Assembly (NCBI GenBank): GCA_000004985.1
Contig: GG738906.1
Direction: 5' to 3' (one strand)
Source: Naegleria gruberi
Taxonomy: Eukaryota
DNA length: 64,000 bases
Shown here: in pieces, positions 6,827-63,500 of the stretch
Numbering within the stretch: position 1 is the stretch's first letter
Layout: the number at the start of each line of letters is the position of its first letter
Notes under the pieces: model-generated
What the model was told of the DNA's origin: nothing
The model's database searches: none
Seen by the model: only the letters and a program-made list of their open reading frames with translations
Translations under genes and position numbers: made by a program

Positions 6827-8410
6827 ATGCCTTCTTCATCAACAGAAGGAAAGGACAGAAAAAAGAAAGACTCGTCCTCTTCAAAAAAGAAGGAATCAAA
6901 AGACAAATCAGAATCTAAAAAATCATCTTCCTCAAGTAAAACTAAAAGCACACCAAATACTACAACAACGTCAAAGGATAATGATGACGATTTTGAAGAA
7001 AAACAATTCGTCTTGAGAGTTCCCGAAGACATCGCAGAAAAAATCCGGGAACGTATTCGTAAAGAAAGTAAATCATCATCAGAGAAAGCTCAACGAGTAG
7101 GATTGGATATGAGCATCAAATTTGGTGACGATGTGGATGTTTTACAATTCCTGCAAGCAGCTAGATTGACAGAAGAAGATGTTAAAGTTAACACTGCAAG
7201 AAAAGAAGACCTAGCTAATGGGTACCTAAGTGATATCGAGTATGGTATTGATAAGAATAGAAGAGGAAGGTTTCAATTTGGTGACAAAATTCTTCCTTGT
7301 GTACTAGTAGATATGCCAACACATGTAGAGGCATATAAATCTATTGATTGCCAAACATATTACAAATGTGGAGATGTCAGCCAAATGATCCTTGTACAAA
7401 AACCATCTGATTTGGAAGCTGATATTCAAAAGTCAAGAGTTAAAAGAAACAAATGTTATCAAAAGAATTCGAATAACAAAACCCACCATCATCATCATCA
7501 TGATTCGAAAAAGAGAAAAACTAAGGACTTGTTAACAAGCTACCTCTTTGAAGATGGTCTTACTTCTCCGATGGAAAGAGTTTTAAGACATTGGAATTCT
7601 CAAAAATTGGAAATTACTAGAAAAGACATTAAAAAACTCAAGGAAAAATATATTCAAATGTTGGAAGAAGAGGATCCAACAAAAGTAAAGATTGAGTTTG
7701 TAGAATATGCTTCAGAGCAAGAGAGATTAGCAGCTTTGCACGAGGAAATGAGTAGCTCATCTTCATCTGATTCGAGTGAATCAGACGAAGACTCTGATGA
7801 TTCTGACAACCTTTTTGATGAATTGAGTGCTAACAGAAAAGATGTAGATAGTGTAAATGGTGACAATGGTACCAACAATCTAGGATCTTCAACACCACTC
7901 AGTCAAGGAAGCTCTAATCCACTAGGCTTTACACCATTCTCGAACACTCCAAACATTCCTAAACATAACCCTACATATATGAGTGAAGATAACATGTCTG
8001 ATGGAGGAGAATCTCAAATTTCTACAATGAGCAAACAGTCTTTGAAACAAAATCCAACACCAAGCCAAATTTCTGATCAGGAAATGAAAGATGAAGACTC
8101 AAGTTCAGAAGATGAATCAGATGACAATGATATGTTTGATGAGGTATCAGCAGCTCCCCAACCATCAGTAGATGTTCGCACAACTCCTCAATATCAAGAA
8201 TTAATTATGAAAAAAGAGTCCTGTGAAAGAATTATTTTTGAAAACGAGTCAAAAATCAAACTGGTGCAAACCAATATAGGAAAAGCTAAAAATGATATTC
8301 AAAAACAAAGAGCTAATGCTGCTATTGCTAGTCTTGGAGATATAGTACAAGATCACAAACAAAAACTTCAAGACATCATTAATGAAATGGATCAATTACT
8401 TCGAAGATAA
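6827..8410 (+). CDS. TAF7: TFIID subunit TAF7 (TAFII55)
   Basis: QFVLRVPEDIAEKIRERI...ILPCVLVDMPTHVEAYKSIDCQTYYKCGDVSQMILV matches the TAF7 N-terminal domain; there is a C-terminal coiled coil. The real ATG is at 6827 (aaaaaaATG); the ORF track starts upstream at a TTG. Confidence 0.8.
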   Translation: MPSSSTEGKDRKKKDSSSSKKKESKDKSESKKSSSSSKTKSTPNTTTTSKDNDDDFEEKQFVLRVPEDIAEKIRERIRKESKSSSEKAQRVGLDMSIKFGDDVDVLQFLQAARLTEEDVKVNTARKEDLANGYLSDIEYGIDKNRRGRFQFGDKILPCVLVDMPTHVEAYKSIDCQTYYKCGDVSQMILVQKPSDLEADIQKSRVKRNKCYQKNSNNKTHHHHHHDSKKRKTKDLLTSYLFEDGLTSPMERVLRHWNSQKLEITRKDIKKLKEKYIQMLEEEDPTKVKIEFVEYASEQERLAALHEEMSSSSSSDSSESDEDSDDSDNLFDELSANRKDVDSVNGDNGTNNLGSSTPLSQGSSNPLGFTPFSNTPNIPKHNPTYMSEDNMSDGGESQISTMSKQSLKQNPTPSQISDQEMKDEDSSSEDESDDNDMFDEVSAAPQPSVDVRTTPQYQELIMKKESCERIIFENESKIKLVQTNIGKAKNDIQKQRANAAIASLGDIVQDHKQKLQDIINEMDQLLRR

Positions 8411-8454
8411 AGTATTTAATTTTTTAATATTTTTGCGCAAAATCATTAAAAAAA

Positions 8455-10416
8455 ATGAAGAAACTCGCAAAAAGTGTACTGCTCCAATCTAAGGTTCTTC
8501 GTCATCAATATAACAAAGGACCAAAATTATGTGGCATTAGTAGTTTAAATAATTTTAAAACTTTTAGTTCAAACTCAGGAGTATTTAACAAAGAGAATGA
8601 TATTATTGAAAGTGATGAAATGGATGAGGATTTAAAACTTTCCCTCTTTGGTGATTCTAGAGGTTCTGATGAATCTAGTTCGAGGTCAAACTATGTTTCC
8701 AGATTGGGCAATGATACTAATGGTGTTTCCTATACAACATATCTTGAAAAAGACAAACACTTCCGAAGACTCACTGAAGAAGAAGTTTCAACTTTAAAAC
8801 AAAAATACAGTGATGTAATGAACCCTCCAACAATAATAACACAATATCCATTCGATTTGAAAACAACACAATCAACCAACTCTACTAAACCACTCGTTTC
8901 ACCTATTAACCATCACGAGTATTTTGCTGTTCTTGATAAAATCAATGCTAGAGTTCTTCAAAGAGGTACCACTGTCACTAAAGTTGGTGTAGCTGTGAGT
9001 GGAGGAGGTGATTCTATGGGTACTGCTATTCTTGTTAAAAAGTGGGCAGACTATTTGAAACAAAAAAAAGGTATCGATATGGAAGTGGTTGCTTTGATTG
9101 TTGACCATCAAATCAGAGAAGAATCAGAACATGAAATGTTATATGTTCATGAAGTGTTAACAAAAACAGTAGGGTACAAAAACGTATTTTGCTTCCAATG
9201 CTTATGGCCAGATAACCAAAAAAAACAACAAAGAATTGCTAGATTGAAGAGACAATTAATTATGTCAAGTGAATGTGTTTCTCAAAAAATTGATCTTCTC
9301 ATTTCAGGTCACCACAAACAAGACAATATCGAAACCATGATTCATAGAGTTGCCTTTTCGAGTGGAATTAATGGCCTTAATGGTATACCTTTGATTTACT
9401 CATATTGTGTAGCAGATGCCACAATAATGCTTGCAAGACCTGGCTTGGTATTTGATTGTAATGAACTTAAAGCAGTTTGTACTCAATACAATATCAAATG
9501 GGTTGAAGATCCAAAAAATAGTGATGAAAGAGAATTCAGATCAATTATTAGATCTAGGTTGGGACTTTTATATCAGTCTGGAGTATCACCTAGTAATTTT
9601 TATAATTTCTTATTGACATTGGGTGCCATTCGTCACATTATGCTTCGTGAATCACTTAACTTTTATAATAGGTATGTGAGGTTTGATGATGAATTGGGTT
9701 TTGCTGGAATTTATTTCTACAGTCTTGAAAAGACTGCCGAGTTTGTTGCTTCAAATGCTCTCAATTCATTAATACAATACGTTACAAATAGAGAATTTCC
9801 AGTAACATTGGGTTCTATTAAGAATGTTGTCAGATATTTACCATCAACGAAACGTTCTCTTGGTGGTTGCTTATTGGTTCCTGATAAGAAGGTTCTCTAT
9901 GTTATTCGTGATACTGGTCCTCTCAGAAGAAAAAAGAATCACACAACCATTAGATTCACTGATAAGGGCATTGTGTGGGATAATAGATTTTTCATTCAAA
10001 TTTTCCAATATAACAAAATGAATATTCCAGAGGAAAATATAACTTATTCAAAAAAGCTTAGCTTGGAAAAACAACCAGAGTATGATAATATTTTAATTCC
10101 AAATTATGATGGAAAGGTTGACACAGATCCAAATGGTATTTACAAAATTAGACCATTTACTGAAACTGACCATAAATACTTTGGTGAACATTATCCACTC
10201 ATGATGAAAGCTGCAAAGCAGTACCCTAATTATTTAACGAGAAGCTTCCCTGTTATTGAGGATAGTAAAGGTACTCTTGGTATTCCTTTCCTTGGTTGGA
10301 AGAGATGCGTCAACATTTTCTGGTACATTAAATTCCTTCCATCTCGTCAAAAGTTTGTGCCAGGTGAAGCTGACAGTTTGTACGATTTTGTTAAACTCTT
10401 TTCAAAGAATAAATAG
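8455..10416 (+). CDS. tRNA(Ile)-lysidine synthetase (TilS)-like PP-loop ATPase with an N-terminal organellar-type presequence
   Basis: PP-loop VAVSGGGDSMGTAIL plus the TilS signature LISGHHKQDNIETMIHR. The first ~45 aa (MKKLAKSVLLQSKVLRHQYNKGPKLCGISSLNNFKTFSS) are basic/hydroxylated and lack acidic residues. Confidence 0.7.
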   Translation: MKKLAKSVLLQSKVLRHQYNKGPKLCGISSLNNFKTFSSNSGVFNKENDIIESDEMDEDLKLSLFGDSRGSDESSSRSNYVSRLGNDTNGVSYTTYLEKDKHFRRLTEEEVSTLKQKYSDVMNPPTIITQYPFDLKTTQSTNSTKPLVSPINHHEYFAVLDKINARVLQRGTTVTKVGVAVSGGGDSMGTAILVKKWADYLKQKKGIDMEVVALIVDHQIREESEHEMLYVHEVLTKTVGYKNVFCFQCLWPDNQKKQQRIARLKRQLIMSSECVSQKIDLLISGHHKQDNIETMIHRVAFSSGINGLNGIPLIYSYCVADATIMLARPGLVFDCNELKAVCTQYNIKWVEDPKNSDEREFRSIIRSRLGLLYQSGVSPSNFYNFLLTLGAIRHIMLRESLNFYNRYVRFDDELGFAGIYFYSLEKTAEFVASNALNSLIQYVTNREFPVTLGSIKNVVRYLPSTKRSLGGCLLVPDKKVLYVIRDTGPLRRKKNHTTIRFTDKGIVWDNRFFIQIFQYNKMNIPEENITYSKKLSLEKQPEYDNILIPNYDGKVDTDPNGIYKIRPFTETDHKYFGEHYPLMMKAAKQYPNYLTRSFPVIEDSKGTLGIPFLGWKRCVNIFWYIKFLPSRQKFVPGEADSLYDFVKLFSKNK

Positions 10417-10596
10417 GTTTATTAGTGGTTTTTTAGTTGAATCAAAAATTCAATTCTGTTACTTTACAAAATCTGTTACAATTGTAAACTCGGTTGGCTT
10501 GATTGAGATTACTGAAAAGCCTTTTCAATTGATTAGTTTTGAAATTGAAGCGTTTCTGTTTGGGTATGATACAGTAAAATGACATGAGAACTTTGT

Positions 10597-21446: not shown

Positions 21447-22997
21447 ATGAAAAGAACAATACTCTTTGCATTGGTGTTATGTATGATTCTTTGTATGTAC
21501 ACTGTTTCAGCAAACAATGCCGATGAATCAAAAGTTCCACCAGTAACAACACCTCCTCAAGAAGGTTTGGTTTCAACTACTCCTCCTACTCATCACGATG
21601 AAGAAAATGATGGGGAAACAACAACCATCACAGCATCTGTAACAGTCAAGGAGGAAGACAGTAATCAATCATCAAATGCTTCAACTTCCGCATCAAATAT
21701 TTCATCCCCTCAAAATAGTTCCTCTTCCCAAAAACAAGTTACTACTGGTAAACCAAAAAACAAGTCCAAGAGAACAATTCAAATAACTATTCCAAAAGAT
21801 TATGAAAAGTATCAACTTAAACCACGTGTCATTGGCGAAGATCAAAAGATTAGATTTTACAATGCACAAAATACTACATTTTATCAAAGAAAGTTGAAGA
21901 ATCCAATTCTTAAATTATGGATTTTGATTGTTGGTAGAAAGATGAAGAACAACTTGCCATACTTTACATACTCTGCAAGACGTTTCTTTGAAACTGCTTG
22001 GAGAAGAAATATTCAAGTGGAATTGATGGAAATTCAAAAGTTTGATTTACTCGTTTCACATGATGGTTCTAATTCTCTCATTTATGATGGTGAAGTTGTA
22101 CCAAGAGATGAATTCCCAGATGTTGTTTTACCTAGATTGGGTGCACAGTACGTTTTTTAATTATTTATTTAAATAACCTTGTTCAATAGTATTGATTATT
22201 GGGGATTGGCAGTAGTTAGACAATTTGAAAAGATGGATGTTTTGGTTCTTAATGGATTTGATTCCCTTGAAATGACTCGTGATAAGCTTCAAACATTACA
22301 GCAATTGGCTAAAGATCAAATTCCAATTCCAAAAACAATGATTGCTCGTTTCCCATTAGAAACCTCAATTATTTCACGTCATTTTACATATCCAATCATT
22401 TTAAAGAAATCTTCTGGTTCTCAAGGAAAAGGTGTAATGCTTATCGAAAGTGAAAACCAAATTAAGGGATTGGATGATATGTTGGATGTTTCCAAATCAA
22501 TGATCATTCAAGAGTTTATTCAAGCAAGCAAAGGAAGAGATATTCGTGTAATTGTTGTTGGTGGTAAGGCCATTGGTGCCATGATGAGAGTCGCTAAATC
22601 AGGATTTAAATCTAATTTCCATCAAGGTGGTTGGGTTAAACCAGTCAAACTTTCTAGTTCTTTGGAATGGTTGGCTATCACTGCTGCTCAAAGTGTTGAC
22701 TTGGACTTTGCTGGTGTTGATATTTTAATTGATAAGGATACTTACAAGATTTGTGAAATTAACTCTTCACCAGGTTTTGAAGGATTTGAGTTAGCAACCG
22801 GTCTCAATGTTCCTGAGCAATTTTTGAATTTTGTGGAATTAAGAACAAGTATTTGGAGAAAAATGGATAAGAAAAAGAAGAAGGGAAAGAATCCACCTGT
22901 AAGAATTCCAGTTGAAGCTGAACATGTTGTTGCCTCAAAGCCAACCAGCGATTCTCCAAAACACATTCAAGTTGGTTTGACAGGAAATCAACTTTAA
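21447..22997 (+). CDS. RimK-type ATP-grasp ligase with an N-terminal signal peptide and a Ser/Thr/Pro-rich stalk; join(21447..22147,22190..22997)
   Basis: Signal/anchor MKRTILFALVLCMILCMYTVSA followed by a mucin-like S/T/P region. RimK N-domain ...ILKLWILIVGRK...DGSNSLIYDGE and the ATP-grasp core YPIILKKSSGSQGKGVMLIE...ICEINSSPGFEGFELATG. A 42-nt GTACGT..ATAG intron (phase 2) joins the two ORF-track ORFs. Confidence 0.7.
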
Positions 22998-23025: not shown

Positions 23026-24694
23026 TTATTCTTTGGATAAAACCTGTTCCAATTGTTTTAGAATAGCAGCAATATCGTGCTTTTTTGAAATTTCTTTTGG
23101 TTTTTCTTTCTTGTGGGCAGATCTTTTTTCAACCTTTATCCTGTCCATATTACTCAAATAAACATCATAGAGAAAATCAAAATCCTTAACTGGTTTCATA
23201 CTGGAGAGAATTGTTTTTTGTTGTCTAATCTTTTTTCTTGTAATATATCCTCTGAATACTCGTTGAATCTCAGTTGCCTTATGATGTAGTTCATTAAGCT
23301 TGTTATGAATTTCTAAGTTTCCTTCCGTCAATTCAATCACTCTTTCTGTTGTTGGGGAAGTTTTTTTATAGGCACGTCTAAACGAATTGGATGATCCTGG
23401 ATTCGAGGATGGAGGAGGAACTGTTGGGAGAGATTTTGAAGTAGGTGGAATGTTACTATTATTTACATTTCTCTGAAAAGTTGCAGAACTTGACTGAGGT
23501 TTTCTATTTCTAGTATCGTTTAATTCTCCAGAAGCCCTCATTTCTTGGGCAGTTTTAAACTTTCGTATTGTACTGTCAGATGGAGTGGTTTTTTGTTTTT
23601 GCTTTACGTCTGGAGAAGAAAATGATTTGTTCATCCAATTCTTTGTCCTCACTTTTTCTAAAGAATCTTTAAACCGTTTGGTTGTGGGGTGATCTGCTCC
23701 AAGAGTTTCTAAGGAAAGACTGAATCCTTTTGAGTAATAATCCATTGCTGCAAGAGTTTGACTCAAATGTTCATATTCTACAGCAACATTATAAAAAGCA
23801 ACAGTTAAAGTTTCATTACAGGTTGCAATATTATTCTTAATATGATTTAGTTTTTTGTAAATTTCTAATTGTCGCAAAGCTTCCGTTCCATGCTCCAGAG
23901 CTTCTTCATGCCTTCCCATTTGAGATAAGACAGCACAAAAATTCAACTCCAAACTTGCATTAAAGTGCTTCTCATGTTTTTGAGCTTCTTGAAGAGATTC
24001 AAGTGACGATTCCAAATCACCACATCTGTAAAGGTTGGATTAAATGAATTTTCAATACTTACTCTTTGTAATAAACTGAACAGTTATTAAGTGTAGAAAC
24101 GAGTAACTTAACTCGCTTCTCATCTTCATCGTGGAAAACAATGCCTCCATATAAGTCTATTATGTTTTTAGCTTTTTGAAGGCAATTTTTGCATGATTGT
24201 TTGTTTTTTTGTTTAGTTAGAAGATCCATAGCCACTACGTTGCATTTAACGATGAATTTTTCGGTTGTTTTCCTTAATTTTTCAAGCTCATCCTCATTAG
24301 GGATACTCTTCATAGCAACATGAAGGTATTCTTCTAAAAATTGTAAACTCTTATTCATATTTCCTTTTTGTTTTTCCTTCTCATAGAGATCCAAAAGCAT
24401 GGAAAGGTCTTTTTTTCTTTGTTTGAACTGATCGCTTAATTTTGAGGATGAAGAATTTCTTGTTATTGGTTGGTTTTCCGTCGGTTGATATGAATCTTGA
24501 TTTATTCTTCCCTCCCTCAATATGTTATTTTGTTTATAATTTTCTTCAACTGTAGTCGTTATCGGATGATAGCCACAGTTTCCTAGGGTTTCTGACATTC
24601 TCGTATTAAATAATTGATGTTCCTCATTTATTGTATTTTGTTGGGTTATTCCAATGGGCGGGCAATAGAGAGAAGATGATCTCGAGTCCATCAT
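23026..24694 (-). CDS. TPR-repeat protein with an IQ calmodulin-binding motif; join(24694..24063,24025..23026)
   Basis: TPR-like helices (ALEHGTEALRQLEIYKKLNH...AAMDYYSKGFSLSLETLGADHPTT) and an IQ motif IQRVFRGYITRKKIRQQK. A 37-nt GTAAGT..ACAG intron (phase 2) joins the two ORF-track ORFs. Confidence 0.6.
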
Positions 24695-24727
24695 TAATTT
24701 TGTCGTTGAGGTGTTTTAATTTTTTAT

Positions 24728-24950
24728 GTCTATTCCCGCTCATTTTTGTTGACGCTTGTTTTGACGATTTTATAGTCATGAATGACGCCTTTGTTTATGC
24801 TTGTTAAGGTGTCATTGGGACGGTGTTGTGGACGTCAAAATGACGTTTTTTTTCGTCATTTTGACGGTGTCAATTTGGGAGTCATTAAGACGTCACAAAA
24901 AGCGTCCTCAATGACGTCTCAAAGTGTGTCTCCAATGACGTTACAGAATG
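24728..24950. promoter_or_regulatory. Dense cluster (about 12 copies) of CRE-like TGACG / GACGTCA half-sites immediately upstream of the TPR-IQ gene
   Basis: Direct reading: tgacgctt, ttgacga, atgacgc, ggacgtcaaaatgacg, cgtcattttgacgg, agacgtcac, atgacgtctc, atgacgtt. The block starts with the 12-mer CCCGCTCATTTT, which recurs in inverted orientation at 26690-26701. Confidence 0.4.
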
Positions 24951-25836
24951 ATCATTAATTTTTGATAAATTGAAATTTTATTGAACTATTCATAATTCTT
25001 ACAAGTCGAAAATCTTTCATCTTGAACCATTTCACATTGAGTGAAACCCAATGCTTTCACACTGTGTGAATTAGCATTGTAAAAGATTTCACACCAAAGA
25101 TGACAAGGAAATTGACAAGAGTTTCTTATAAAAATATGAAATAAAAATTTGAAATTGATGTAAACGAATAGAAATGATATATTATATTATATAATTGATA
25201 ACTGATACGACTTACTAGTATGTTGAGGTATTTTTTTTGAAAAATATTTTAAACTGGTTGCAAAAATAGAAAGTGTTTATTTTAGAGATGAAGCCAAATA
25301 TGGAAAGACATTTAATATAATGTAAAGGCCATTTTGTGAATTGGTTTGAAGTGAAAAGAGCCATGCTGGCATATTGCTGGTATGAAATCTTGTTTGATCG
25401 TGTCTTTGAATCTCAATTTGTGAATAATCTGGAGAAAATGAATTGACTTGATAAATTTTTAGCTGTTTCTGTAATAATGGAAGATCTTCTAATTGAAATG
25501 AATCCATTAACTTGTCAATTATTCTCACATATTGAATAATGTGTTGAACTATTTCTTGAATTTCACAATAGCTGGGAATTTCCTGAAATAATTCGAGATA
25601 ATAACGACAGAATGTGATCTTCAATGGATTTCAGGGGATTGATATTCTTTGCAATGGATTTTGGGTGCTTGTGAAAAAAGGATGAAATCAAATTCTTTCC
25701 AACGTCGGTCATCAATTAAATTGAGAAATTTCACCAAAATACCTTCATAATTGTAATACATGTTACCATATGAACAGATAGGATTGAATGGTTGCAATAG
25801 AATTGGAGAAACACTATCCATTCCGAGTGGTAGTTC

Positions 25837-26103
25837 TTGAACTTTACTGTTGGTGCTTACGAATCTGGCTTAATTTTGAATATGAATCCATGGATGCATT
25901 TGCTCGTCTTTGGTGGTTGTATGATTGGAAGAAACATGATCACTAGATCTCTCGATGTGAATACTGATAGTGAATTGAAGCATACCATGTTGACTGCCTT
26001 CAACGGAATTGTTGGTTTGTCACTCTGTTATGTTGGTTTAATGTATAGACCAGAAATTGGTATCTTTGGTGCCTTGTCCTATGTTGCCATCAATGCTGAA
26101 TAA
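25837..26103 (+). CDS. Small multi-pass membrane protein ORF, weakly TMEM14-like (Gly-zipper helices); possibly incomplete
   Basis: FTVGAYESGLIL...LVFGGCMIGRNMITRSLDV...FNGIVGLSLCYVGLMYRPEIGIFGALSYVAINAE. Glycine-rich TM helices resemble the TMEM14 family. No upstream ATG exon was found. Confidence 0.25.
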   Translation: MNFTVGAYESGLILNMNPWMHLLVFGGCMIGRNMITRSLDVNTDSELKHTMLTAFNGIVGLSLCYVGLMYRPEIGIFGALSYVAINAE

Positions 26104-26629
26104 GACAAGTTCCTTTCTATTGTCTTTGTCAAGCTTGGCTCCATTGGTTCCCCAGCCACAATGACTAGAACTGTGCAAGCTGCTGAAGCTATTGCTCTCT
26201 ATGGTTTGTTGTTGTTCCAATTCTGATGTATTACCATATCTTCTGATAGCTTAGGTTCATTCATAGTCTTGTTGAAAAGGTAACCAGTACCACTACCGTA
26301 AATGGTATTATTCAATTCCTCTAGACATTGTCAAAATGCTCATTGGTAAAGTGACTAAAAAACAGTGCTTGGAATCCTGTATGAGAACTGTAGAAAGTTC
26401 TTTGAAGCAGGGGATAAAGAAAGTGTTTGGAAGGCAGTTGATGAAGATGTTAAGCTTTATTTTTTTAGTAAAAATTTTCAAAAATATTCACAAGTCTGAA
26501 ATACGTCACCTCCTCCTTCACTGATTTTCATCATCAAAACAACACAAAACAAACAACAACAAATAAACAACACATTACAACATCAAGTAGAACACAACAG
26601 AATATCGATAATTAACTTTGGAGTAACTT

Positions 26630-26705
26630 TATGTAAAAACGTCAGTGATGACGTCAAAAAAAGCGTCAATCCACCATCAGGAATGACGAAATAAAATGAG
26701 CGGGT
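26630..26705. promoter_or_regulatory. Second CRE-like TGACGTCA cluster, inverted relative to the 24.8-kb cluster, ~300 bp upstream of the adaptor-like gene
   Basis: aaaaacgtcagtgaTGACGTCAaaaaaagcgtcaatcc...gaatgacgaaataaaatgagcggg. Contains one perfect palindromic CRE (TGACGTCA). Confidence 0.4.
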
Positions 26706-27002
26706 TCTTTGGAGGCAAAAAAAACACTTCCTCAATTGGAACTAGAGACTGTCACAACAAACTCCAGGTCTGCTCTCCAAAGTTTAAAAAATGTTTTGAA
26801 ATATGTAAACGATAATTGTAATATTATTATGATTTCTTTGAAATAATTGACAAAAAGCACCCCATCAATCAAACATTTTAAAAATTTTGAAATAATTTTA
26901 TTAAATATTTTAAAAAAAAATAAGAGGGAACCGCTTTTGCAACAATCACCCAGGAGTTGCCACATTTTTTGATTTGACCAAATTTTTATTATAGTTATCG
27001 TC

Positions 27003-29707
27003 ATGGGTGTATTGTGTCTTTTTGTTCAAGAACAAAGAGAACCTAAATTAAATCTCTTCCTTCATTCGTAAGTTTGTGATCATAGTATTTTAATGACACA
27101 AAAAGTCATCACGAAATTTCCCAAAACCAAGCTATAACAATATCAGATCATTTCGCAAAACTTATCTCTACTAATACATCAGCCAGAGGTGAAGTGTTTA
27201 TTGCTAAAAAATTCAGAGCTGTTTTTATTCTATTGAATGAAGTTTATGTAGTGACTGTTTGTCATAAATCCGACTATCCATATGATGCACTCAGATGTGC
27301 AAACAATGCCAAGTTATTAATGTTTGAGGCTTGTAAAGGAGTGGAAGTGACTGTCATTAATTTGTATAAAAAGTTTGGACAAATAATGTTAGCCCTTGAG
27401 GAATTAATCAATGAAACAAATACATTTAAACCACCATCAACAAGTTTGGAGATGGTTGGAAAATCAAAATTAGGAGAAGCACATCATGTCTCTGCTCAGT
27501 ACAACGGAACTTCACATATTCAAACTAGTAAGACTCTCAATTCTGGTTCTTCTTTTATAGGTTCTCAAGATACACCAAAAAAAGCAAGAAGAGGCACCAT
27601 TAAACAAATGGAAAAGCTTATATCATATACTGCTGATGAAATGTGGAAGGAAAAGCAAAAGCAAATGGAATCACATCAAAAGAGATTCCAAATTTTAGAT
27701 AAATTCCAAGCACCAATTAGTAATGAACAAATTGAAGACAAGACAGTGACAGTGACAGATGATATGCTTCCAGATCCTACTGACATTATCAATTTTCAAT
27801 TTGGTTTTGATTTTACTGCACCAGATGAAGAAGATGCTCTTCCAAGTTTCAACCACAAAAGAGCCAAGTCAACCAACATTTCTACAGGATCTGAGAGTAA
27901 TGGTATTTCAAGTTTTAGAAAACGACAAATGGAACACATTGCTCTTGGACAACAAATGTTTCCTCTTAGTGAAGAGGAATGGCACTCCCTTAAAGTACCA
28001 TCTCTTCCTGAAAATTTAAAACCTGTATTTATTCCTCCACCAACAACCAATCTTCCTCCTCTTCCACAATCATTCGTTACTTTACAACCTCAAAAATTAC
28101 CACCAAAGGTTGGTACTGCATTTGATCGTGGTGATAGCAAACTTATCAGCTTTGAGCCTTTTGATTTACATGGAAGTACTACAAGTAGCAAAATGGAAGG
28201 TGAGGACACTGAAGTCGACATGTCGGATGAAGATTACACTTTCAGATCAGACAAACAAGACAAATTAAGTGACTCCATCTATGACTATAATCCACCAAAA
28301 GTTTCCACACAAAATTCTTTATCAAATATTCTTTTACCAACAAATTTACCTCCTCTACCTTCTACTTTGATAACCAACCAAGGAAGTGTGGCAAATAACA
28401 CTGGCAATACCACATCAACAAACTTTTTGGATGCTTTCCTCGGACCAACCGATCCAATTCCAACAAAAACTCAAAACTCATTATTGTTGGTTGACAGTTT
28501 AATGACCCCATCATTGGATCTAAATTCAACCCTTGTTCAACCTTCCGTCATATCAGGTGCTAATCTTGGTAATAACAATTTTATCCCACCAATACCTACA
28601 ACAATCACTACTAACACCACACCAAATGGTAAAAATGTTAGTAGTAATGAAAATATTCCTACTGTTCCACCATTGAATACTACTATCAAACCAGTTTCCA
28701 CAAATATTACAACTCCTAAAATTACTCCAAATGAGCCTACCAATTTCCTCACAGAAATTCAAAACAAGCAACTCAATCCAATTGCTCAAAATTCTCCATC
28801 CACCCCAATGTTTGATCCTAATGAACTCAAGAAATCCATAGAACAATCTCAACAAAAGAGAGCAGCTGTATTGCCATTCAAAGTACTTGTCACAGAAACT
28901 GTTGTCAAGAACATGTCAGGTCTCACTGAGGAGGAGTACAACTTTATGGGTCAAATTGAACTAATTCTATTCAATCATGAAAGTTATCGTTCTTCGGATT
29001 CGTACAAGTTTATTCTGTCTCTTATTAATGATCAATTTAACAATTCAGAAAACTTTACCAAAATTGCTAAAATTGTTTGTAATCCAAAAATTGCTAATGA
29101 ATTGAGCAATAGTGGTGATGTAACAAGTCATGCTTTTGAATGTAATGTAACTGGTCAAGAAATTAACCCAAAGTCTCAAAATGCAGTCATTCTCAAATAC
29201 AAACTAAAGGAGCATTTGAATCTAGTTCCATTCAAATTAAGGCCTCTCTACTTTATGGCAACCAAGGATGGACAAACAATGCTAAATATTTCAATCGATT
29301 ATATTGTAAATCCTGCTACCCCCCTGGACAAGCTCTCTTTCCTTATTCGCATTTGTACATCAAGTGAACAAATTACGCTAAAATCTCAATCTAAACCTGA
29401 AGGTCGTTGGAATGCTACTAGACAAGAACTATTAGTGAATGTGGATCAACCAGGACCAAAAGGAAGTGTTATTGCTAAATTTTTACTCAATCGTGAAGTG
29501 AAAGATATTGCTGAACTGCAAACAGAATTCTTATGTAAATTTAATGCAAAAGGTCTCCTTGCTGGATTTACTGTGGAAGGAGGTGAGAGCAAGAGAAGTG
29601 CCCACAATCAAGTATTTTTGGGTGGTTGTGAATATTCAATCACCACACCATCTTGGAGGTATAAACTTACCTCGGAGAACTTGAACCCACAATTTGCCAA
29701 CAAGTAA
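27003..29707 (+). CDS. Adaptor-like protein with a C-terminal mu-homology-like domain and a possible N-terminal longin-like fold (stonin / TSET-TCUP / muniscin-like); join(27003..27067,27106..29707)
   Basis: The C-terminal ~280 aa (VPFKLRPLYF...PSWRYKL) resemble mu-homology domains. The N-terminus (VFIAKKFRAVFILLNEVYVVTVCHKSD...) is longin-like. A ~450-aa S/T/N/P-rich linker lies between them. The proposed first exon (MGVLCLFVQEQREPKLNLFLHS) with a 38-nt GTAAGT..AAAAG intron is tentative. Confidence 0.45.
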
Positions 29708-33600: not shown

Positions 33601-34799
33601 GATAGTTCAATTTCCAAACTCTTACTTGATGTTCCTTCTTTGATATTGAAACCAAACCCTTTCCAAATGGTGTATATCTAATTTTTGATACTGGGAAAGC
33701 CACTCGTTGTGTCATTATTAATTTTTGTTCGGTATAGTCCCATATCTTTACTAATTTATCCATTGATCCTGCTGTCACAATTTCATGTGCATTTGTTGGA
33801 CTCCAATCCATAGAAGAAATGAGAGGATGGTGAGCAGAAATAAATGTAGTAAACTTGTTGGATGGTGTTGAAGAGGAAGAACAATTTCTAATATCCCAAA
33901 TTCTTAAATCTACATTATGTGCAGAGGCGATTATATTGGAATCTATTGGATTCCAACAAACAATACTTGGAAAATCTGTATAGGAAATAAAACTTGCCAC
34001 TTTACATTGGTTTCTTTCAAATTAAATCATTTGTAAATATGAGATTGGAAAAACTTACGAAGGTAATCTGGTATCCCAAATATTAACGAATCCATCACCA
34101 CTACAAGTTGCAATTTTACTGTTCGTTAAATCATGTGGAGACCAAGAGATTGAATTGATGCTTCTTTGATGAGCTTGGAAAGATCTATCCCTATCCGTAT
34201 CATTGGATGTGAATGATGTTATAGACCCAATAGTTGAAGTATTAGATGATGTACGGCCTCTGACACCAGAACTTCCTCCAGCAATTGATGATATCGAAGA
34301 ATTAGGAATGGTACTAGATGTTACTCCCTTTGATAAATCTAAAATTTGAAGACTATCAGATGTTGTATAGGCCAATATTGGTTTTGCAATGTCATGACTA
34401 AATTGAACACAAGAAACTTCATTCTTTTTACTTTTGTGTAATAAAAGGGATGGTTGGGAGGAGGTTGATGAAATGTTTGTTGCTGAAGAAATGTGTGAAG
34501 AAGTGCTATTTAATGATGATGAAAGAGTTGAAGAGGTATTTGTTGATGAACCTGTAGGTGTGATATTGTTTGGATTTGGCAATCTAAATACTATTAGACC
34601 ATTCCGACTAGAAAATAATTTTTACTAACAATAATAATTGATCAACCTACCTCCCCAATGCCATCAGTTCTCCACTCGTGTCTACAGACAAGTCGTTAAC
34701 ACTTTGTACTTGTCTTAGTGTAAATTTGTTACTTTCCTCATTCCGAATGGAAGAGGTATTTACTCTTTGTTGGTTTGAAGAAAATATTGCTGATAACAT
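30686..34799 (-). CDS. WDR59-like GATOR2 subunit (WD40 propeller, RWD-like domain, C-terminal RING-like zinc finger); join(34799..34651,34607..34059,34013..30686)
   Basis: WD40 blades in exons 2-3. RWD-like block ...ITFPKLYPVGAPPSFEFIQSRSF. C-terminal CSLCRSPVRGVVSYCPNCNHGGHVEHLQNWFQNHSTCPAGCDCKC is typical of WDR59/MIOS/WDR24. Introns are 43 nt (GTAGGT..TAG) and 45 nt (GTAAGT..AAAG). Confidence 0.65.
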
Positions 34800-35071
34800 T
34801 TTAAAGTGATGTTTTGATCAACATTAAATTTTACTGATGTTATTTGGTGGATATTTTTTGTGGTAAGTCCTTGAAAGATACTGCACTATGTGCTTTAAAA
34901 CCACTGAAACATCAATAGTTTTAATAACGTTAATTTTGTACTAATATACTGTCATTTAGGAATGTTATCAAATTCTTAACTACCCGCCAAAAGTTGTAAT
35001 AATAGATCCATCATTCTACAGAAAACAAAGTTGGCGCTCAAAGTAGTGAGAACAACAACTTTATTAAAAAA

Positions 35072-35715
35072 ATGAGCAACAAGGTAATTAAGGTCATTCT
35101 TCTTGGGGATTCTGCAGTTGGAAAATCAAAGTTAGTTGAAAGATTCATGATTGATGGATTTCGAGAGCAACAACAATCTACGTTTGCAGTAAACATCTTC
35201 CCATACAAAGCCAAAATTGATGGTGAAGACTGCGATGTTGAATTCTGGGTAAGTGTTCCGATTTGATCATTTATGATAGAAAATCATTAAAGGATACAGC
35301 TGGTCAGGAGAGGTTTAATAATGTGCATCCATCTTACTATGACAGAGCCCATGCTTGTATTTTCGTTTTTGATGATAGACAAATTACATACAAGAATTTA
35401 GAAAAGTGGTACAACGAATTGCAAACTTATCGAAAGGGTATTCCTTCGATAGTGATCTGTAACAAGATAGATTGTAGGTTTTCTGATTTGAATTAATAAT
35501 GAATAACAACTAATTTTCTTGGAATAGTAAACATGGAGGCAACAAAAACCACTTTCAATTTTGCCTCAAAGAGAGAACTTCCATTATATTATGCCTCTGC
35601 TGCTGATGGAACCAATGTAGTTAAGGCTTTTACAGATGCCCTCAAACTAGCAAAGAAATGTAGAGACAACCCAGAAAAGGAATTTGTGGATGATGTTCTA
35701 GAATTACTAAATTAA
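35072..35715 (+). CDS. RABL2: RABL2 Rab-like GTPase (cilium/IFT-associated); join(35072..35248,35293..35473,35528..35715)
   Basis: IKVILLGDSAVGKSKLVERFMIDGFREQQQSTFAVNIF...DTAGQERF...ICNKID-L-NMEATKTTFNFASKRELPLYYASAADGTNVVKAF is collinear with human RABL2 (VKIICLGDSAVGKSKLMERFLMDGFQPQQLSTYALTLY...NKIDDINVTQKSFNFAKKFSLPLYFVSAADGTNVVKLF). There is no C-terminal prenylation Cys. Introns are 44 and 54 nt. Confidence 0.8.
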
Positions 35716-35794
35716 ATATTTTTACATTTCTGTTCAACATTTTTTAAATATTTTACAACTTTAATAAATTTAGAATAATAGCAATTATTAAAAA

Positions 35795-36175
35795 ATGAGT
35801 TTGTTGACACAAGATTTGAGTAAAAAATCCGTTTTTAATCTGCATAGTTTGAACAAAATTGATGGTCAAATAGGTTATGGAGTAATAGAGTGTACCAGTG
35901 GAATTATTCAACATGTAGGTATTTAAAAGAATAATTAATGATAAATCAAACGATCGGAAAAGAATGAAGGAAAATTTAAAGATCAACCTGAATTATTGGA
36001 ACACGTACATGGCATGTTGCAGGATATTAATGGACTGTTTACTTCATCCTCCAATGATGAATCAATTAAAAAATTAACTGTCCGTATTGAAAATGACTCT
36101 CAAAGTGGAAAAAATTTACTCTACCATATTTCCATATCTAAGAGCAATGTATTTGTTGTTCTAACAACATGCTAA
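35795..36175 (+). CDS. LAMTOR4: Ragulator complex subunit LAMTOR4 (C7orf59-like), missed by the ORF track; join(35795..35914,35963..36175)
   Basis: MSLLTQDLSKKSVFNLHSLNKIDGQIGYGVIECTSGIIQH | NEGKFKDQPELLEHVHGMLQDINGLF...NLLYHISISKSNVFVVLTTC aligns with human LAMTOR4 ([28 protein letters not shown]...LLVTVSGQRVFVV). There is a 48-nt GTAGGT..AAAAG intron. The ATG is in an A-run. Confidence 0.65.
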
Positions 36176-36255
36176 ATTCCTGTAAATAAAATTAAATTAT
36201 AATACATTAAATAATTATTAAATTTAAATTAAAAATTATTAGCAAACAAAAAAAA

Positions 36256-37852
36256 ATGAGACTATCAAAGAAACTTTTGAGCGTAGCAAGAATGCACGCC
36301 CAAGCTACATTACCAATCAACAGATGTTTCAATTCTTCTCGATACTATCAAATTGGTAGGTTTATAAAAAACTAAAAAAGCTAACATTCCGAAAGATATT
36401 GGAAAAGTATCTTCAACTTTCCAAATTCCTTCACTTTCTGCTCTTCAAAGTAAAACATTGGAGGTTGTATCAAAGGATAATAGTAAGGATGTCTTCATTG
36501 AAGCACCAATTTTTTCTGGTAAGACTTTGGCCTATCTTGTTCCAACCTTTGAATTAGTTTCTCAAGCAATCAAATCAGAGAGATGGGCAGAAAGACCAGG
36601 CTTCCGTGCCCTCATTGTTGTTCCAACTCGTGAAGCAGCTATTGCTGTTGGTTTCCAAATTGACAAATATATTTCATCACTCCCTGTTGAAGAACGTCCT
36701 TTGGCTCCTGTAACTAAAGGAAATACAGACACTTACACATTCAAGTCAACAAAGAAGGAAGGACACGAAATTATTGAAGACCACCAAGGATATTCCGCTT
36801 ATGAAAAGTCTATTACTCGTAGAGAAAATGTTTATGGACTTTCATATGCTGTTATTTGCGGAGGAAAGAGTATGGAACAAGAAATTACTATGCTTGATGC
36901 AAGCGAGCCAGAAATTATTGTTGCAACACCAGGCAGACTTTTGGACCACATGAAGAATTCTGATTACTTCCGTAATTGTAAGATTGTTGTTGTTGATGAT
37001 TGTCAACTCTTCAAGGGTGATGTCGAAGGAGTTATGGATAAGGTTTTTGAAAATATTCCACAAACAACCCAAAGAGTTTTTGTTGGAACCGCCGAACCTT
37101 TCAAGAAATATTTGAGAAATAGTGATAATGTAGAACTCATCTCATCTACTGAATCAGTTTCAAAGAGTGACGTTAAACAATCAATCATCAAGACACAAAA
37201 TACTGCTGAATCTTTGAAAGTTTTACACCAAATTTTGTCTCAAAACAAGCACAAGAAGGTTGCTGTTTTTGGTGAAAACTCTCAAATTATTCACACACAT
37301 TACTTGATGGCTGAAAATGGAATCTTTTCTCTCCTAATTGCTAGTAAGATTGCTCCTTCCAGATCATTGACAAGTTTTAGTAATTTTAATCAACAACAAA
37401 ATGGTATTGCATTCTGTTCAAATATTGCCTGCCAAATGACTCCTGATGTGGATTTGGTCATTCATTTAGGAGCTCCAGAAACTCAAGAAAAGTACGAAAG
37501 TAGACTTTCTCGAACCTATTCTAAGAATCAATCTCAATCTATTGTCTTGGCCTCCCAAATTCCAGACTTTTTGAGCAATGTACAAATTGTTCAAACACCA
37601 TCTGCATCTTCTGATTTTATTGCTAAACAACTCAGAGTTCCTTCAATCCAAAAAGTTAACGGTGAGAATTTGTTGATCTCTTTAATTTTGAGAAGACAAA
37701 CTACTACACCAGAAGAAAAGAAACAAGCTGTAGAGCAAGCTATTAAGGATTTGAAAGATTTTGGTTTTGTGGAATTACCTAAATTGCCAAAACAACAAGC
37801 TATCAAACTTGGTTTTGAAAAAGAATTGCTTGACGCAGGATTGCTGGAATAA
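36256..37852 (+). CDS. DEAD-box-like helicase paralog with degenerate catalytic motifs and an N-terminal mitochondrial-type presequence; join(36256..36355,36396..37852)
   Basis: Exon 1 (MRLSKKLLSVARMHAQATLPINRCFNSSRYYQIG) is joined through a 40-nt GTAGGT intron with a CTAAC branch site. Motif I is APIFSGKT (AxTGSGKT is expected). PTREAA and TPGRLLDHM are retained. Motif II is VVDDCQ instead of DEAD. Motif VI is SRLSRTYSKNQ instead of HRIGRTGR. Confidence 0.65.
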
Positions 37853-59320: not shown

Positions 59321-60403
59321 TTACTTTCTTTCTATCTCTATTTTAATATCCCAAAATGCCTTAATAAGTGAATCAAGAGCTTTCTTTTCTCTATCGTTCA
59401 ATCTATCGATAAGAGGTTTGAATTTTTCTGGATGTTTCTTATAGACTTTAAAGTGTGTCAAAATTTCTTTAAATACATGGGCAACGAGATCATCATCAAA
59501 AACCTGCATTTCCTTCTCTTTTTCCTTTTTGTGGTCCTCTCTTTCTCTGTCTTTGAGTCTTTTAGTCATTTTGTCTGGGGTGTAATCTCTAAATAAAATA
59601 TCAAGAAATAGAGATTGGTCCGATTCTGATAACTTTTCACATAATTGCAGTAATTGTTGAGGATTTTGGGTGTAGTGAATTAAATTACCCTCAAAAATTT
59701 GCAGAGCCTCTTTCACAGAATCTGAAGCATTTTCTAATAACTTTTTTGTTACACTCTCATCACCAATATTATCCAAATCATCTTCCAGATCATCTTCAGT
59801 CAAGTTTTTCCATATTTTAGAATTAATATCACTCCCAATCATGGCTGTATTTTTTACAGCTTCTATAACTTGAGGATCATTGTTAAAATATTTAATTGCA
59901 TCATCAGGTTCTTTTTGTAATAAATCCATCAATGAAGACAACTCGTTTGGAAGTAATTTTGATATGAAATGGTCGGCTGCGTTCTTGTCTGTAATCATGG
60001 ATTGTCCTGATTTTAATAATTCAATATAAATTTGTTTCAGTTTAGATTTGGTCACATTTTGTTTGTCTTGTGTGAGAGTATTTAAATTTTTGAATTCTTG
60101 AAGTAATTGTTGTTTAAATTCTTCATCATCTGATAAATCATCAAATACATCATCCGAGTCATCGGAATCATTTAAAAATCCTTTTGAAGAAAGATCCTTA
60201 GCAAGTTTTTGTGTAAGTAAATCAACAGTTTTAGTGTCAATTTCGGAAATTTCTTCATCATCAAATTTTAGAGTGCTACTTGTTGATTTTGATCCTAAAG
60301 ATTTTTTTTCTGCGTTTGAATCTCTATTCTTCTCCTTGTTGAGTGATTCCATCAGATTTTGCATAAAAGAATCCGAAGGATTGTTGTTCAACCTTTTGCT
60401 CAT
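59321..60403 (-). CDS. Acidic hypothetical protein (360 aa), function unassigned
   Basis: Single ORF with an A-run ATG. D/E/S-rich N-terminal half and a K/E-rich C-terminal tail. No motif I can name. Confidence 0.45.
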   Translation of the reverse strand: MSKRLNNNPSDSFMQNLMESLNKEKNRDSNAEKKSLGSKSTSSTLKFDDEEISEIDTKTVDLLTQKLAKDLSSKGFLNDSDDSDDVFDDLSDDEEFKQQLLQEFKNLNTLTQDKQNVTKSKLKQIYIELLKSGQSMITDKNAADHFISKLLPNELSSLMDLLQKEPDDAIKYFNNDPQVIEAVKNTAMIGSDINSKIWKNLTEDDLEDDLDNIGDESVTKKLLENASDSVKEALQIFEGNLIHYTQNPQQLLQLCEKLSESDQSLFLDILFRDYTPDKMTKRLKDREREDHKKEKEKEMQVFDDDLVAHVFKEILTHFKVYKKHPEKFKPLIDRLNDREKKALDSLIKAFWDIKIEIERK

Positions 60404-60502
60404 TTTTTTGGTTCGTTTTCCCGCCTTGTTTTTTCGTTTTCATTTTTTGATTCTTTTGCAGCAGTTACCTGAAAACTACAGCAAAAATCCAGATTAAAAA
60501 AA

Positions 60503-63500
60503 ATGAGCTTAGAAGCCTCCCTACTCTCTAAGAAGATTACTCTTTCTCCGAGAGTAAATTCTGATGAGAAGGATTTCTTTTCGGAAGATTATGGAGAGGA
60601 ATTCGAAAAGCCAATTATTATGCAAGAGGAGATATTATTGGATGGGAATAATAGTAATTTTTTTGATTTTAAACCAAATCAAGAAGAGGATCAAGTTCTA
60701 ATTCCAAAATATAAAAAAAACAGAAATGCAATACCAGGCAAATCAATTGAGTTACAAGGAGTAGATAATAGTAAACTAGTCAGGGGTAAGGATACCATTG
60801 AAAAAATTAAACGAAAGCACAATATTGCAAAAAATACTTCTCCCCTTAGGCCTAGAGTCACTTCTCAAACACCTGATCCTATTCCCCAACAAAATTCAAT
60901 TGTACATGTCCCATTGAGTGAATTTTCAGCAACACGGTTAGAAGTTCATTTGCCACAGTCACTAAATCAAAAAACTAAACCTGTCAAACATCTTATAAAT
61001 AACCAAGAAGAAATGATTAGTATTGAGGTTGTTAAAGATGTTTATGCATCCTATATGAGTGAATCAAATTACGAAAACGATGATGAATATGTTATTAATA
61101 TTACTAAGGACGATAGTTCCACAGTTTCAAGTGGTAGTGAAGTTGGAGGTGACAACTTTGAAATAATCAAAAGCAAAGTGTCAATCCAACCAGATTATTC
61201 GACTGTAAAAATGGAAACAAAACAGATTATGGAGGAGGAAATTAAAACTATGAAAAATATGAAAAAAAAGGTACCCTCAATTGCAACTCAACAATTGGAT
61301 TTTTTTAAACGAAAGAGCAGAGATCTTTTTACAGACAACTTTAAAGACTCATCATTCAAGAAAAAGAATTATTCCCAGGTAAAGAGCAAGGTAAATTCAA
61401 TGTTATATACTTCTGACGAGGAAAACGAGGATATAGATATAGAAAGAAGAGATGACTCCCAACTTTCAATTAAACTGCCTTTTCTTGACAAGAAGAAAAA
61501 GAAGAGAAAGACAAAGACAGATTTGACTCCAGAAAAAGTACCAAAACCAGAACTCACAACAACATTCAGTGTTCAATCATTTTCAGAGTTTGAAGAAGTT
61601 GATTTTTTCGATGGAAACGAGGATATGGGAATTGTTGACGATGTCATTAAAGCAGCAAGTGCTCGAGGGTGTTCCAATCTCCCAAAAACAAAAATCCCAA
61701 AAAAATATCACATCATTGAAACAACCCCAATAGCTACAAGAGATGAATTAGACAAGAATTCACAATATAATATCGAGAAAAAACTATGGGAAACAACTTT
61801 ATTTCCCTCCAACAAACCAACATCTAGAATTGAGGTTGTTCAACTGGCTAGAACTTTTGAACAGATGCTTTCTGAATTGAAAGAAAAGAAGAAGGATGAG
61901 GCATCAGAAGTTAACGAGGAAATAACGATATTGGATGTGATAGCATCAGAAATATCAAGACAAATAAGTGGACAATGTGCTGAAAGAGGTATTCTTCTGG
62001 ATAAACTCGTTTCGAGATTCAAAAGATTAACTTCAAAATCAACAAAGATAAGCAAAGAAGCTGCTAGTAAACTAGAAGATATACAAGCTAGAGAAAAGCA
62101 AGTTAATTCTATGGTTGATTTTTATACAGATTTGGCTAAATCGAAAGAAGACCAATTAGCAAAGAAGGAAGAAGAAATAATAGAACTATTGGATCAAATT
62201 GAGCGCCTTAAATCACAACTAAGACAAACAAAAAAGGGAATACATGCAATGACAAGTGAATATTTTCAAGAAAGAATTCGACAAGAAATGGTATCCAAAA
62301 GTTTGCAGGTAACTCCAAGAGAAAACCCTAACTATATCATGGAACCAATTAAGATACCAACACCAAGAATAATAGAAGAAGAACTGAAAGAAAGTCTTTC
62401 TCATTCAAATATTGAAAAGAAAAAAATTCAAACTGAAGAAAGATCTGTAAATACCCCAACAATTGAGGGAATCAGTTTGGATAGCATTAAGGAGATTGAG
62501 AGATTTAATTCTCTATTTGTTAAAACCCAAGTTGAAGAGGATGAAGTAGATATTTTCCAAAGGCACAAACCTAAACCAAAACCAGAACCAAAACCACCTC
62601 AAGAAGTACTCAAAGCAAAAACAAAAGAAAAGGAAACTCAAACAGCCCCCGTTATCATGAAAAAACCAGAAGCTGAAAAACCCGTTCATTCACCTCGTAC
62701 TGTTTATGAAACAAAGTACAAACAAGGATCCATTAGAGACAAAGCAGTGCAGGTAATAACAGCAATTAAACCACCTACACCTCCACCTCCACCTGTAGTT
62801 GTTGTTCAACCAAAACCTGTTCAAATACTCCCTCCTCAACCTCCACCTGTTGTTGTTGCAAGTGTATCAACCCAAACATTCCTTGCAGGAGAGGTAATTA
62901 AACCCTCTACAGAACGTCAGAAATCTGAATCTGAAAGAAATCCATCTCCAACAACTATCAGATCTGTTTCACCTGTTATCTCCCAAATGAGGTCAAGTTT
63001 GGACAAAAATGAGGTTATCAAGAAGAGAATAGATAGTAACGTAAATTCGCAACCAGAATCAAGAAATAGTAAGAGAGATAGCATCGACTTTTTAAAGTAC
63101 AAGATGAAACTTGTAAAGCCAGAAGATATCTATAGTCTTTTCAAGGAAATCTTAAGCTCTGATAAGAGTGTGAGAAAACAAACATTGAGATGGATGAACA
63201 AGATGATTTTGGATATTTTTTTGGAATTATCAGCTAGTGATTTTTTATTCCATAATAATGAGCTAGTTCTGATTAGAAAATTTGTTTATGATTTCTTCCT
63301 TCTAAAATTTGGTTTACCCACAATTGCTTTAAATGTAAGTTAAATATTTTAGTCACATTCACAAAGGATTAATTAGCATTTGGCAGAGTTTTTGATTAAT
63401 ATTAAAAGCAAATTTAGGGAGAGTATTAGAGTTCAAATGTTTACGCAGTATTGTGTATTATCTGAATGGATTGGTAAAAATATTTCACCAGAATATACAA

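Follow-up and report, generated by a model that had tools for sequence, protein, structure and literature searches.

Examination of a 64,000-nucleotide stretch of Naegleria gruberi NEG-M DNA (GenBank assembly GCA_000004985.1, contig GG738906.1; hereafter the window) reveals a 1,970-bp element, at positions 24735-26704 between two divergent genes, that is very probably a decayed, non-autonomous DNA transposon of the cut-and-paste type (class II) with terminal inverted repeats (TIRs). It lies in a spacer of 2,308 bp, measured from the ATG of a gene for a TPR-IQ protein (24694, minus strand) to the probable ATG of an adaptor-like gene (27003), in agreement with the 2.3 kb given in an earlier reading of this DNA made from the letters alone (the sequence-only reading). 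Among the origins which that reading had offered for the spacer was a decayed TIR transposon with subterminal repeats, and this is the one that the data bear out: the element has defined boundaries and a 2-bp target-site duplication, encloses the remnant of a transposase gene, has a second copy elsewhere that ends exactly at its terminus, and shares with a wider family, which includes multi-copy CCCGCT elements in Naegleria lovaniensis, both CCCGC(T) termini and subterminal T(G/A)ACG repeats.

Termini and target site

The element is bounded on either side by CCCGCTCATTTT, a perfect 12-bp TIR (12/12) with only two exact occurrences in the window. The sequence-only reading had described the two ends of the spacer as imperfect inverted copies of each other. 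Inverted copies they are, in that global alignment of the two 90-nt ends of the element gives a score of 44.5 against 7.4 +/- 6.3 in 500 shuffles (maximum 29); their placement needs amending, as the terminal repeats are not at the edges of the spacer but set in from them by 40 bp on the left and 298 bp on the right. Just internal to the TIRs, TTGACGCTTnTTTTGACG is present at both ends (17/18 identical), as is TCATnnnTGACG, separated from the terminus by 2 nt on the left and by 23 nt on the right, where the arm carries an extra 21 nt. Immediately outside the TIRs the dinucleotide TT is repeated directly. Such 2-bp direct repeats flank all four insertions compared, namely TT in the window and AA, GA and TG in N. 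lovaniensis; calculated from base composition, the chance of four matches out of four is about 0.078^4 = 4e-5.

Given that about 60 exact 12-nt inverted pairs no more than 6 kb apart are expected by chance in a window as AT-rich as this one, the terminal repeat alone proves nothing, and it gains its weight from being combined with other features and from evidence outside the window. The same figure could be cited for regarding the spacer as ordinary, long, AT-rich intergenic DNA in which the 12-mers and motif clusters are coincidental. A metagenome scan for the end pattern CCCGCTCATTTTN{0,30}TTGACGCTT illustrates the point, since all nine of its matches lay on contigs of 47-60% GC, had no further similarity and were due to chance. 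Against coincidence stand the transposase remnant inside the element, the second copy ending exactly at the terminus, the clustering of the motif (P ~1e-14) and the alignment of the ends far above shuffles, and we regard this explanation as already refuted, its remaining probability being close to nil.

Read outward, both termini (24741-24746 on the minus strand and 26696-26704 on the plus strand) give AAAATGAGCGGG, in which ATG-AGC-GGG (Met-Ser-Gly) comes after an A-rich start context, and at the right terminus this opens a 39-codon open reading frame (ORF), MSGFFGGKK...CFEICKR, into the flank. The Met-Ser-Gly start is probably a coincidence; fusion transcripts between element and host could nevertheless arise from it. 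A second exact 12-nt inverted repeat of the window, GCTCATTTTTTT (60398-60409 and 60497-60508), belongs to two divergent genes that both start with AAAAAAATGAGC. Start-codon contexts thus create spurious inverted repeats in the N. gruberi genome.

A transposase remnant and a second copy

A search by phmmer of 1.84 billion representative proteins with a 115-residue ORF from the minus strand of the element (25277-25624) recovered two proteins: P0122 (690 residues; E = 1.6e-25), which is the N. gruberi "predicted protein" XP_002668619 from a 13-kb scaffold, and P0121 (106 residues; 96% identical). In a tblastn comparison, residues 385-521 of P0122 map to 25833-25460 and residues 629-690 to 25459-25315. 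Identity reaches 83-94% in the best segments and falls to 57% over the frameshifted stretch corresponding to residues 385-475; the same comparison found no counterpart in the element for residues 1-384 and 522-628. The "fragmentary ORFs" noted in the sequence-only reading are therefore real, and the P0122 match identifies them as a broken, internally deleted copy of a transposase gene.

P0121 is encoded on a 1,380-bp metagenome contig from ENA (L008), whose identity to the window, at 95%, begins at 25968 and breaks off exactly at 24735, the outermost base of the terminal repeat. Beyond this base, the remaining 128 bp of the contig agree with the window flank at 35 of 128 positions (27%), i.e. 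at random. Window element and contig also have a deletion junction in common, at which LLQKQL is joined directly to KIYQVNSF. The same deletion next to an unrelated flank indicates that a deletion derivative was mobilised to at least two sites. A search for additional copies had been proposed along with the sequence-only reading, and L008 provides one, with homology that stops exactly at the CCCGC terminus. The outermost 189 bp (24735-24923), which take in most of the left subterminal region, are identical in window and contig, compared with 15 differences and 24 gap columns in the adjoining 369 bp of non-coding DNA; the contrast is suggestive, though not significant.

As a non-autonomous element with TIRs that is inserted close to genes, the window element resembles miniature inverted-repeat transposable elements (MITEs). 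These are usually shorter than 800 bp and lack coding capacity, whereas the element has 1,970 bp and recognisable transposase coding sequence. The label of MITE, which had also been suggested, is hence better replaced by that of a deletion derivative of an autonomous element.

The interior to the right of the remnant (25834-26503) contains nothing that matches P0122, the second ORF of the N. lovaniensis elements described below or the DNA of those elements. Its first part, 25834-25968, is common to L008 and so belongs to the mobilised unit. In this interior lies the ORF that the sequence-only reading had called a TMEM14-like membrane protein, and it raises the question of a small hidden host gene, represented either by a TMEM14/Bax-inhibitor-like product of 25837-26226 (plus strand) or by a short ORF from the ATG at 26696, with the repeats serving as its promoter. 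A weak match of the 25837-26103 ORF to Bax1-I (E = 0.0024), the outward reading of AAAATGAGCGGG as ATG-AGC-GGG at both ends and the precedent of small intron-containing genes in the other ORF-poor stretch of the window could all be cited for such a gene. However, the match (18.1 bits) is far under the Pfam cut-off of 34.1, the frame is interrupted by an in-frame TAA, zero homologues were found among 5.8 billion proteins, and part of the ORF falls within the mobilised unit common to L008; furthermore, the ORF that starts with Met-Ser-Gly at the left end has 39 codons before its stop and lies across the TPR-IQ start in a different frame. We consider a hidden gene very improbable, and the TMEM14-like assignment finds no support.

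Related elements and their second ORF

Relatives of P0122 are found in more complete settings in N. lovaniensis, the closest non-pathogenic relative of N. fowleri. P0128, which is 40% identical to P0122, is encoded at three places on three contigs of N. lovaniensis (GCA_003324165.2), each in an unrelated gene neighbourhood. The corresponding 5.9-kb copies (L004:2498-8363, L005:2498-8389 and L006:2497-8389) are 99.5-99.9% identical to each other, with a 26-bp indel close to the right end as the main feature that sets L004 apart from L005 and L006, and this level of identity suggests recent, perhaps ongoing, transposition in this species. The copies start with CCCGCTACTC and end with GAGAAGCGGG, thereby displaying CCCGCT termini, and their first 300 bp hold 15 T(G/A)ACG motifs (7 TGACG and 8 TAACG). 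In addition to the transposase-like gene they carry a second, divergently oriented ORF of 411-468 residues (ORF2), both ORFs being annotated as hypothetical proteins. The presence of P0122 relatives inside multi-copy elements bounded by TIRs suggests that the P0122 family comprises the transposases of such elements.

Further members extend this picture. One related element (L007) starts with CCCGCACAGT, followed by TAACG repeats. In L018, a contig from the same ENA sample, a transposase fragment of subfamily 2 is followed after about 160 bp by the end, made up of three TTGACG motifs and then TTTAGCGGG. N. gruberi itself carries additional annotated fragments of the family (P0123, P0125, P0130 and P0131). 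Neither the DNA nor ORF2 of the N. lovaniensis element has any similarity to the window beyond the termini.

Analysis of the ORF2 proteins (L005:4423-5829 and L007:1881-3218, both on the minus strand) points to a short heptad pattern reminiscent of a leucine-zipper coiled coil, with weak matches to DivIC, TSC22 and CCDC85 at residues 318-348 and, in L007, a lysine-rich stretch ahead of the coiled coil. The ORF2 product is accordingly a candidate for a dimeric DNA-binding accessory protein that would act on the TGACG/TAACG repeats.

Adjoining one of the N. lovaniensis copies is an inverted duplication (L005:8410-14256) of a gene for an nSTAND/ATPase (525 residues) together with a gene for a short-chain dehydrogenase (327 residues), with the mirror-image gene copies at 8410-11156 and 12033-14256.

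Subterminal repeats and the regulatory alternative

The motif TGACG occurs 54 times on both strands of the window, as against 33.8 +/- 5.4 in dinucleotide-preserving shuffles. The 1,970-bp element accounts for 16 of these where 1.04 are expected (Poisson P ~3e-14), ten of them clustered in 24750-24940 and the other six in 26504-26688, which leaves the interior without any. In the 62 kb outside the element, which include about 30 promoters, the count is 38 where about 33 are expected, and the entire excess thus belongs to the element. On the right, four of the six motifs point inward, as at the left end. The sequence-only reading had reported about 17 half-sites with one perfect palindrome at 26648-26655. 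Dense clusters at the ends are indeed present, with a count of 16 TGACG in the element, and the palindrome TGACGTCA is real and the single one in the window, its correct position being 26649-26656, one base further on. Because each TGACG repeat contains a CpG, CpG content peaks, for the 64 kb as a whole, at the left end of the element (24601-25000), the top-ranking 200-bp windows falling in its subterminal region. Over the whole window GC is about 33% and CpG is markedly scarce, with an observed/expected ratio of 0.415 where GpC has 0.84. N. gruberi is known for a Tet-like enzyme, and the CpG-rich left end may be relevant to methylation-dependent control.

TGACG is also the half-site core of the cAMP response element (CRE) recognised by ATF/CREB-type factors, and the sequence-only reading had offered, as alternatives to a plain transposon, a duplicated bZIP enhancer module or a transposon-derived regulatory cassette. 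On such a reading the clusters would be CRE-like sites through which Naegleria bZIP factors drive the flanking genes, either unrelated to transposition or co-opted after the insertion. The arrangement of the locus lends it some appeal: the TPR-IQ start codon has the element 40 bp upstream of it and the beginning of the left cluster at 56 bp; besides the one perfect palindrome there are several ACGTCA/TGACGT sites in the element; and transposon ends are, in general, well known to have been co-opted as promoters. Nonetheless, the majority of the sites are half-sites in A/T-rich surroundings and not CRE palindromes, no second TGACGTCA exists in the window, and the other promoters of the window show no enrichment of TGACG. 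The same class of motif also marks the ends of relatives at loci that have nothing in common (N. lovaniensis, L007 and L018) and of the L008 copy at its different site, from which it follows that the repeats travel with the transposon. The view that the repeats originated as an enhancer finds no support in this distribution, and a host regulatory module, co-opted or not, appears improbable to us. On a more limited scale, the TPR-IQ gene, with its ATG 40 bp from the element, must have its transcription start in, or read through, the end of the element, and some influence of the element on this transcription is plausible.

The retention of the repeats as a motif class across elements that otherwise cannot be aligned is best read as a sign of putative binding sites for an element-encoded protein. 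In En/Spm, TNPA binds subterminal repeats, and by analogy we are inclined to favour TGACG, with its counterparts TTGACG and TTAACG in the relatives, as candidate sites of this kind. The protein that binds them could be the transposase, through its N-terminal zinc-ribbon region, or the ORF2 product.

Possible affinity to the CACTA/Mirage/Chapaev group

Comparison of P0122 with Pfam yields a match of residues 218-334 to positions 30-158 of Transposase_21 (PF02992, the tnp2 family of CACTA elements) with E = 0.006 and 16.2 bits, below the cut-off of 28.6. The alignment contains a series of blocks, GDGVxPF ... ADLPARSEIL ... FCHLC ... DSMHxLYEG, in which we see a likeness to CACTA transposases and their D, D, CxxC and MHxE blocks. 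Judging from this alignment, the candidate catalytic residues lie in GDGVxPF, ADLPAR and MHxLYEG, with the conserved FCHLC (CxxC) following ADLPAR. A conserved CxxC...CxxC region is situated N-terminal to this core; a profile search of PDB sequences gave, as its sole resemblance, the CxxC...CxxC zinc ribbon of the cellulose synthase N-terminus.

Several aspects of the elements recall En/Spm (CACTA) and the wider CACTA/Mirage/Chapaev (CMC) assemblage. They include many short subterminal repeats at both ends, an autonomous relative with two ORFs comparable to TNPD and TNPA, the weak Transposase_21 match over the D...D...CxxC region, and internally deleted, non-autonomous derivatives mobilised in trans, as are the dSpm/I elements. 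Cut-and-paste movement with TIRs and a short, 2-bp target-site duplication is a further likeness. For the CMCT group (EnSpm, Mirage, Chapaev, Transib and Plavaka), duplications of 2-5 bp are described, together with the motifs C(2)C and H(3-4)H and termini that are mostly CA..TG (PMC12730594). There are differences as well. EnSpm duplications have 3 bp, not the 2 bp seen here and in some lineages of the superfamily; the Naegleria termini read 5'-CCCGC(T)...GCGGG-3' in place of CACTA or CA..TG; the Pfam match is sub-threshold and confined to one family member; and no similarity to a known family is detectable for ORF2. Their CCC...GGG termini led us to consider piggyBac, whose ends likewise begin with CCC and end with GGG. 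It was rejected, given that the duplications are TT, AA, GA and TG, with no TTAA, and that the Naegleria transposase has no Pfam match to piggyBac-type families.

Strength of the case and proposed history

A number of points weigh against the reading of 24735-26704 as a transposon, or against its placement within the CMC group, and are gathered here. As to the element itself, a duplication of 2 bp carries little weight when taken case by case, and within the element's own subfamily the independent copy confirms the left end only: L008 stops short of the right end at 26704, for which no other copy is at hand. Copy number in N. gruberi is known from annotated protein fragments only. The N. lovaniensis and metagenome loci with the CCT-theta orthologue do not keep the gene order of the window, so that there is no orthologous spacer for an empty-site comparison. 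As to the placement, the Transposase_21 match is not reproduced by P0128, P0129 or the family consensus, a Pfam search of these three and of both ORF2 proteins giving nothing significant, and CMC membership thus rests on one sub-threshold match. The alignment shows no clear H(3-4)H motif. The termini are CCC...GGG instead of the CA...TG usual for CMC, with five of five related elements starting CCCGC. Finally, the AlphaFold2 model of P0122, built from a 5-sequence alignment, has a mean predicted local distance difference test score (pLDDT) of 41, with the catalytic region below 50, and is too poor to use.

The points on the element itself leave its identification as a decayed TIR transposon very probable. 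For the placement, there is agreement in the length of the duplication, in the CxxC motif and in the subterminal repeats, but not in the termini, and H(3-4)H is not clearly seen; we therefore suggest that the element works like those of the En/Spm type, and treat membership of the CMC group as tentative, with the chances for and against it about equal.

In light of the above, we propose the following history. An autonomous element of the family would encode a transposase of about 690-750 residues, of which XP_002668619 is the N. gruberi example, and the 12-bp CCCGCTCATTTT termini would be the ends recognised and cleaved. Two internal deletions may have removed codons 1-384 and 522-628 of the transposase gene from a derivative in which both ends were kept. 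Moved in trans by a functional transposase, this derivative would then have inserted into a TT dinucleotide of the promoter region shared by the divergent TPR-IQ and adaptor-like genes, stretching that region to 2.3 kb. The spacer without the element and one TT comes to about 338 bp, which is typical for the N. gruberi genome and would be the size of the original target. Before insertion the site would have read ATGTCTATT joined directly to CTTTGGAGG, with a single TT and no element. The frameshifts in the remnant would have been acquired after insertion.

Features of the locus

The coordinates of the element, its parts and the two flanking genes are collected in Table 1. The long ORF of the adaptor-like gene starts at 27194; its 5' exon-intron structure was read by eye, and its ATG at 27003 is given as probable.

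Table 1. Features of the spacer and its flanking genes (positions in the window)
Feature	Coordinates	Strand	Remarks
Host gene, 5' ORF of TPR-IQ protein	24059-24694	-	ATG 40 bp from the left end of the element
Left target-site duplication copy, TT	24733-24734		TCTATT followed by CCCGCTC; matches TT at 26705-26706
Left terminal inverted repeat, CCCGCTCATTTT	24735-24746	+	One of two copies in the window; L008 homology ends exactly at 24735
Left subterminal region	24747-24945		Ten (A/T)(A/T)TGACG(T/C), seven on the plus strand; 0.11 TGACG expected
Transposase remnant, frameshifted and internally deleted	25315-25833	-	tblastn of P0122
Interior of no assigned origin	25834-26503		Includes plus-strand ORF 25837-26103, running past an in-frame TAA to 26226
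Right subterminal region	26504-26692		Six TGACG, including the TGACGTCA palindrome (26649-26656); 0.11 expected
Right terminal inverted repeat, AAAATGAGCGGG on the plus strand	26693-26704	-	Exact-match search of the window
Right target-site duplication copy, TT	26705-26706		GAGCGGG followed by TTCTTTGG
Host gene, adaptor-like	27003-29707	+	Probable ATG 27003, 298 bp from the right end of the element

Proteins encoded elsewhere in the window include CCT-theta, SMC, TAF7 and cysteinyl-tRNA synthetase, and an Rfam search of the whole window gave zero matches. Two of the proteins agree exactly with the N. gruberi NEG-M entries XP_002671326 and XP_002671378, which belong to a 286-kb scaffold. The largest ORF-poor stretch of the window (34622-36367) is not intergenic, holding instead small intron-containing genes, namely one for a Rab-like small GTPase (about 35073-35716, with at least two introns) and one of about 100 codons that starts at 35797. 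As this stretch is filled by genes, the short true spacers that the sequence-only reading had seen elsewhere in the window are a reasonable statement. At 21447-22160 an ORF with a secreted-looking N-terminus directly precedes an ORF for a RimK-type ATP-grasp protein (22179-22997; Pfam E = 2e-47). The two are probably one gene (21447-22997) that a short intron interrupts; most RimK-like ligases are known from bacteria.

Implications

No description of this Naegleria element family was found in the searchable literature. One could go further and envisage a DNA transposon lineage restricted to Heterolobosea, defined by CCCGCT termini, 2-bp duplications, two divergent ORFs, a transposase without an above-threshold Pfam domain (at best a very distant relative of CACTA) and CpG-containing, CRE-like T(G/A)ACG(TCA) repeats that would bind the element's own protein and, when placed in promoters, act as bZIP/CRE sites that rewire host expression; taken as a whole, we judge this proposal rather unlikely. 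The element is ordinary in kind, from a poorly described family, and its interest for annotation and transposon taxonomy is modest. It explains the 2.3-kb gap in a compact genome as a transposon insertion for which an unusual enhancer is not needed. It also allows XP_002668619 and its fragments in N. gruberi, as well as C9374_004752 and its copies in N. lovaniensis, all currently "predicted" or "hypothetical" proteins, to be labelled as transposase genes of a TIR family. The conserved termini and repeats of the family offer a handle by which such elements can be found and masked in heterolobosean genomes.

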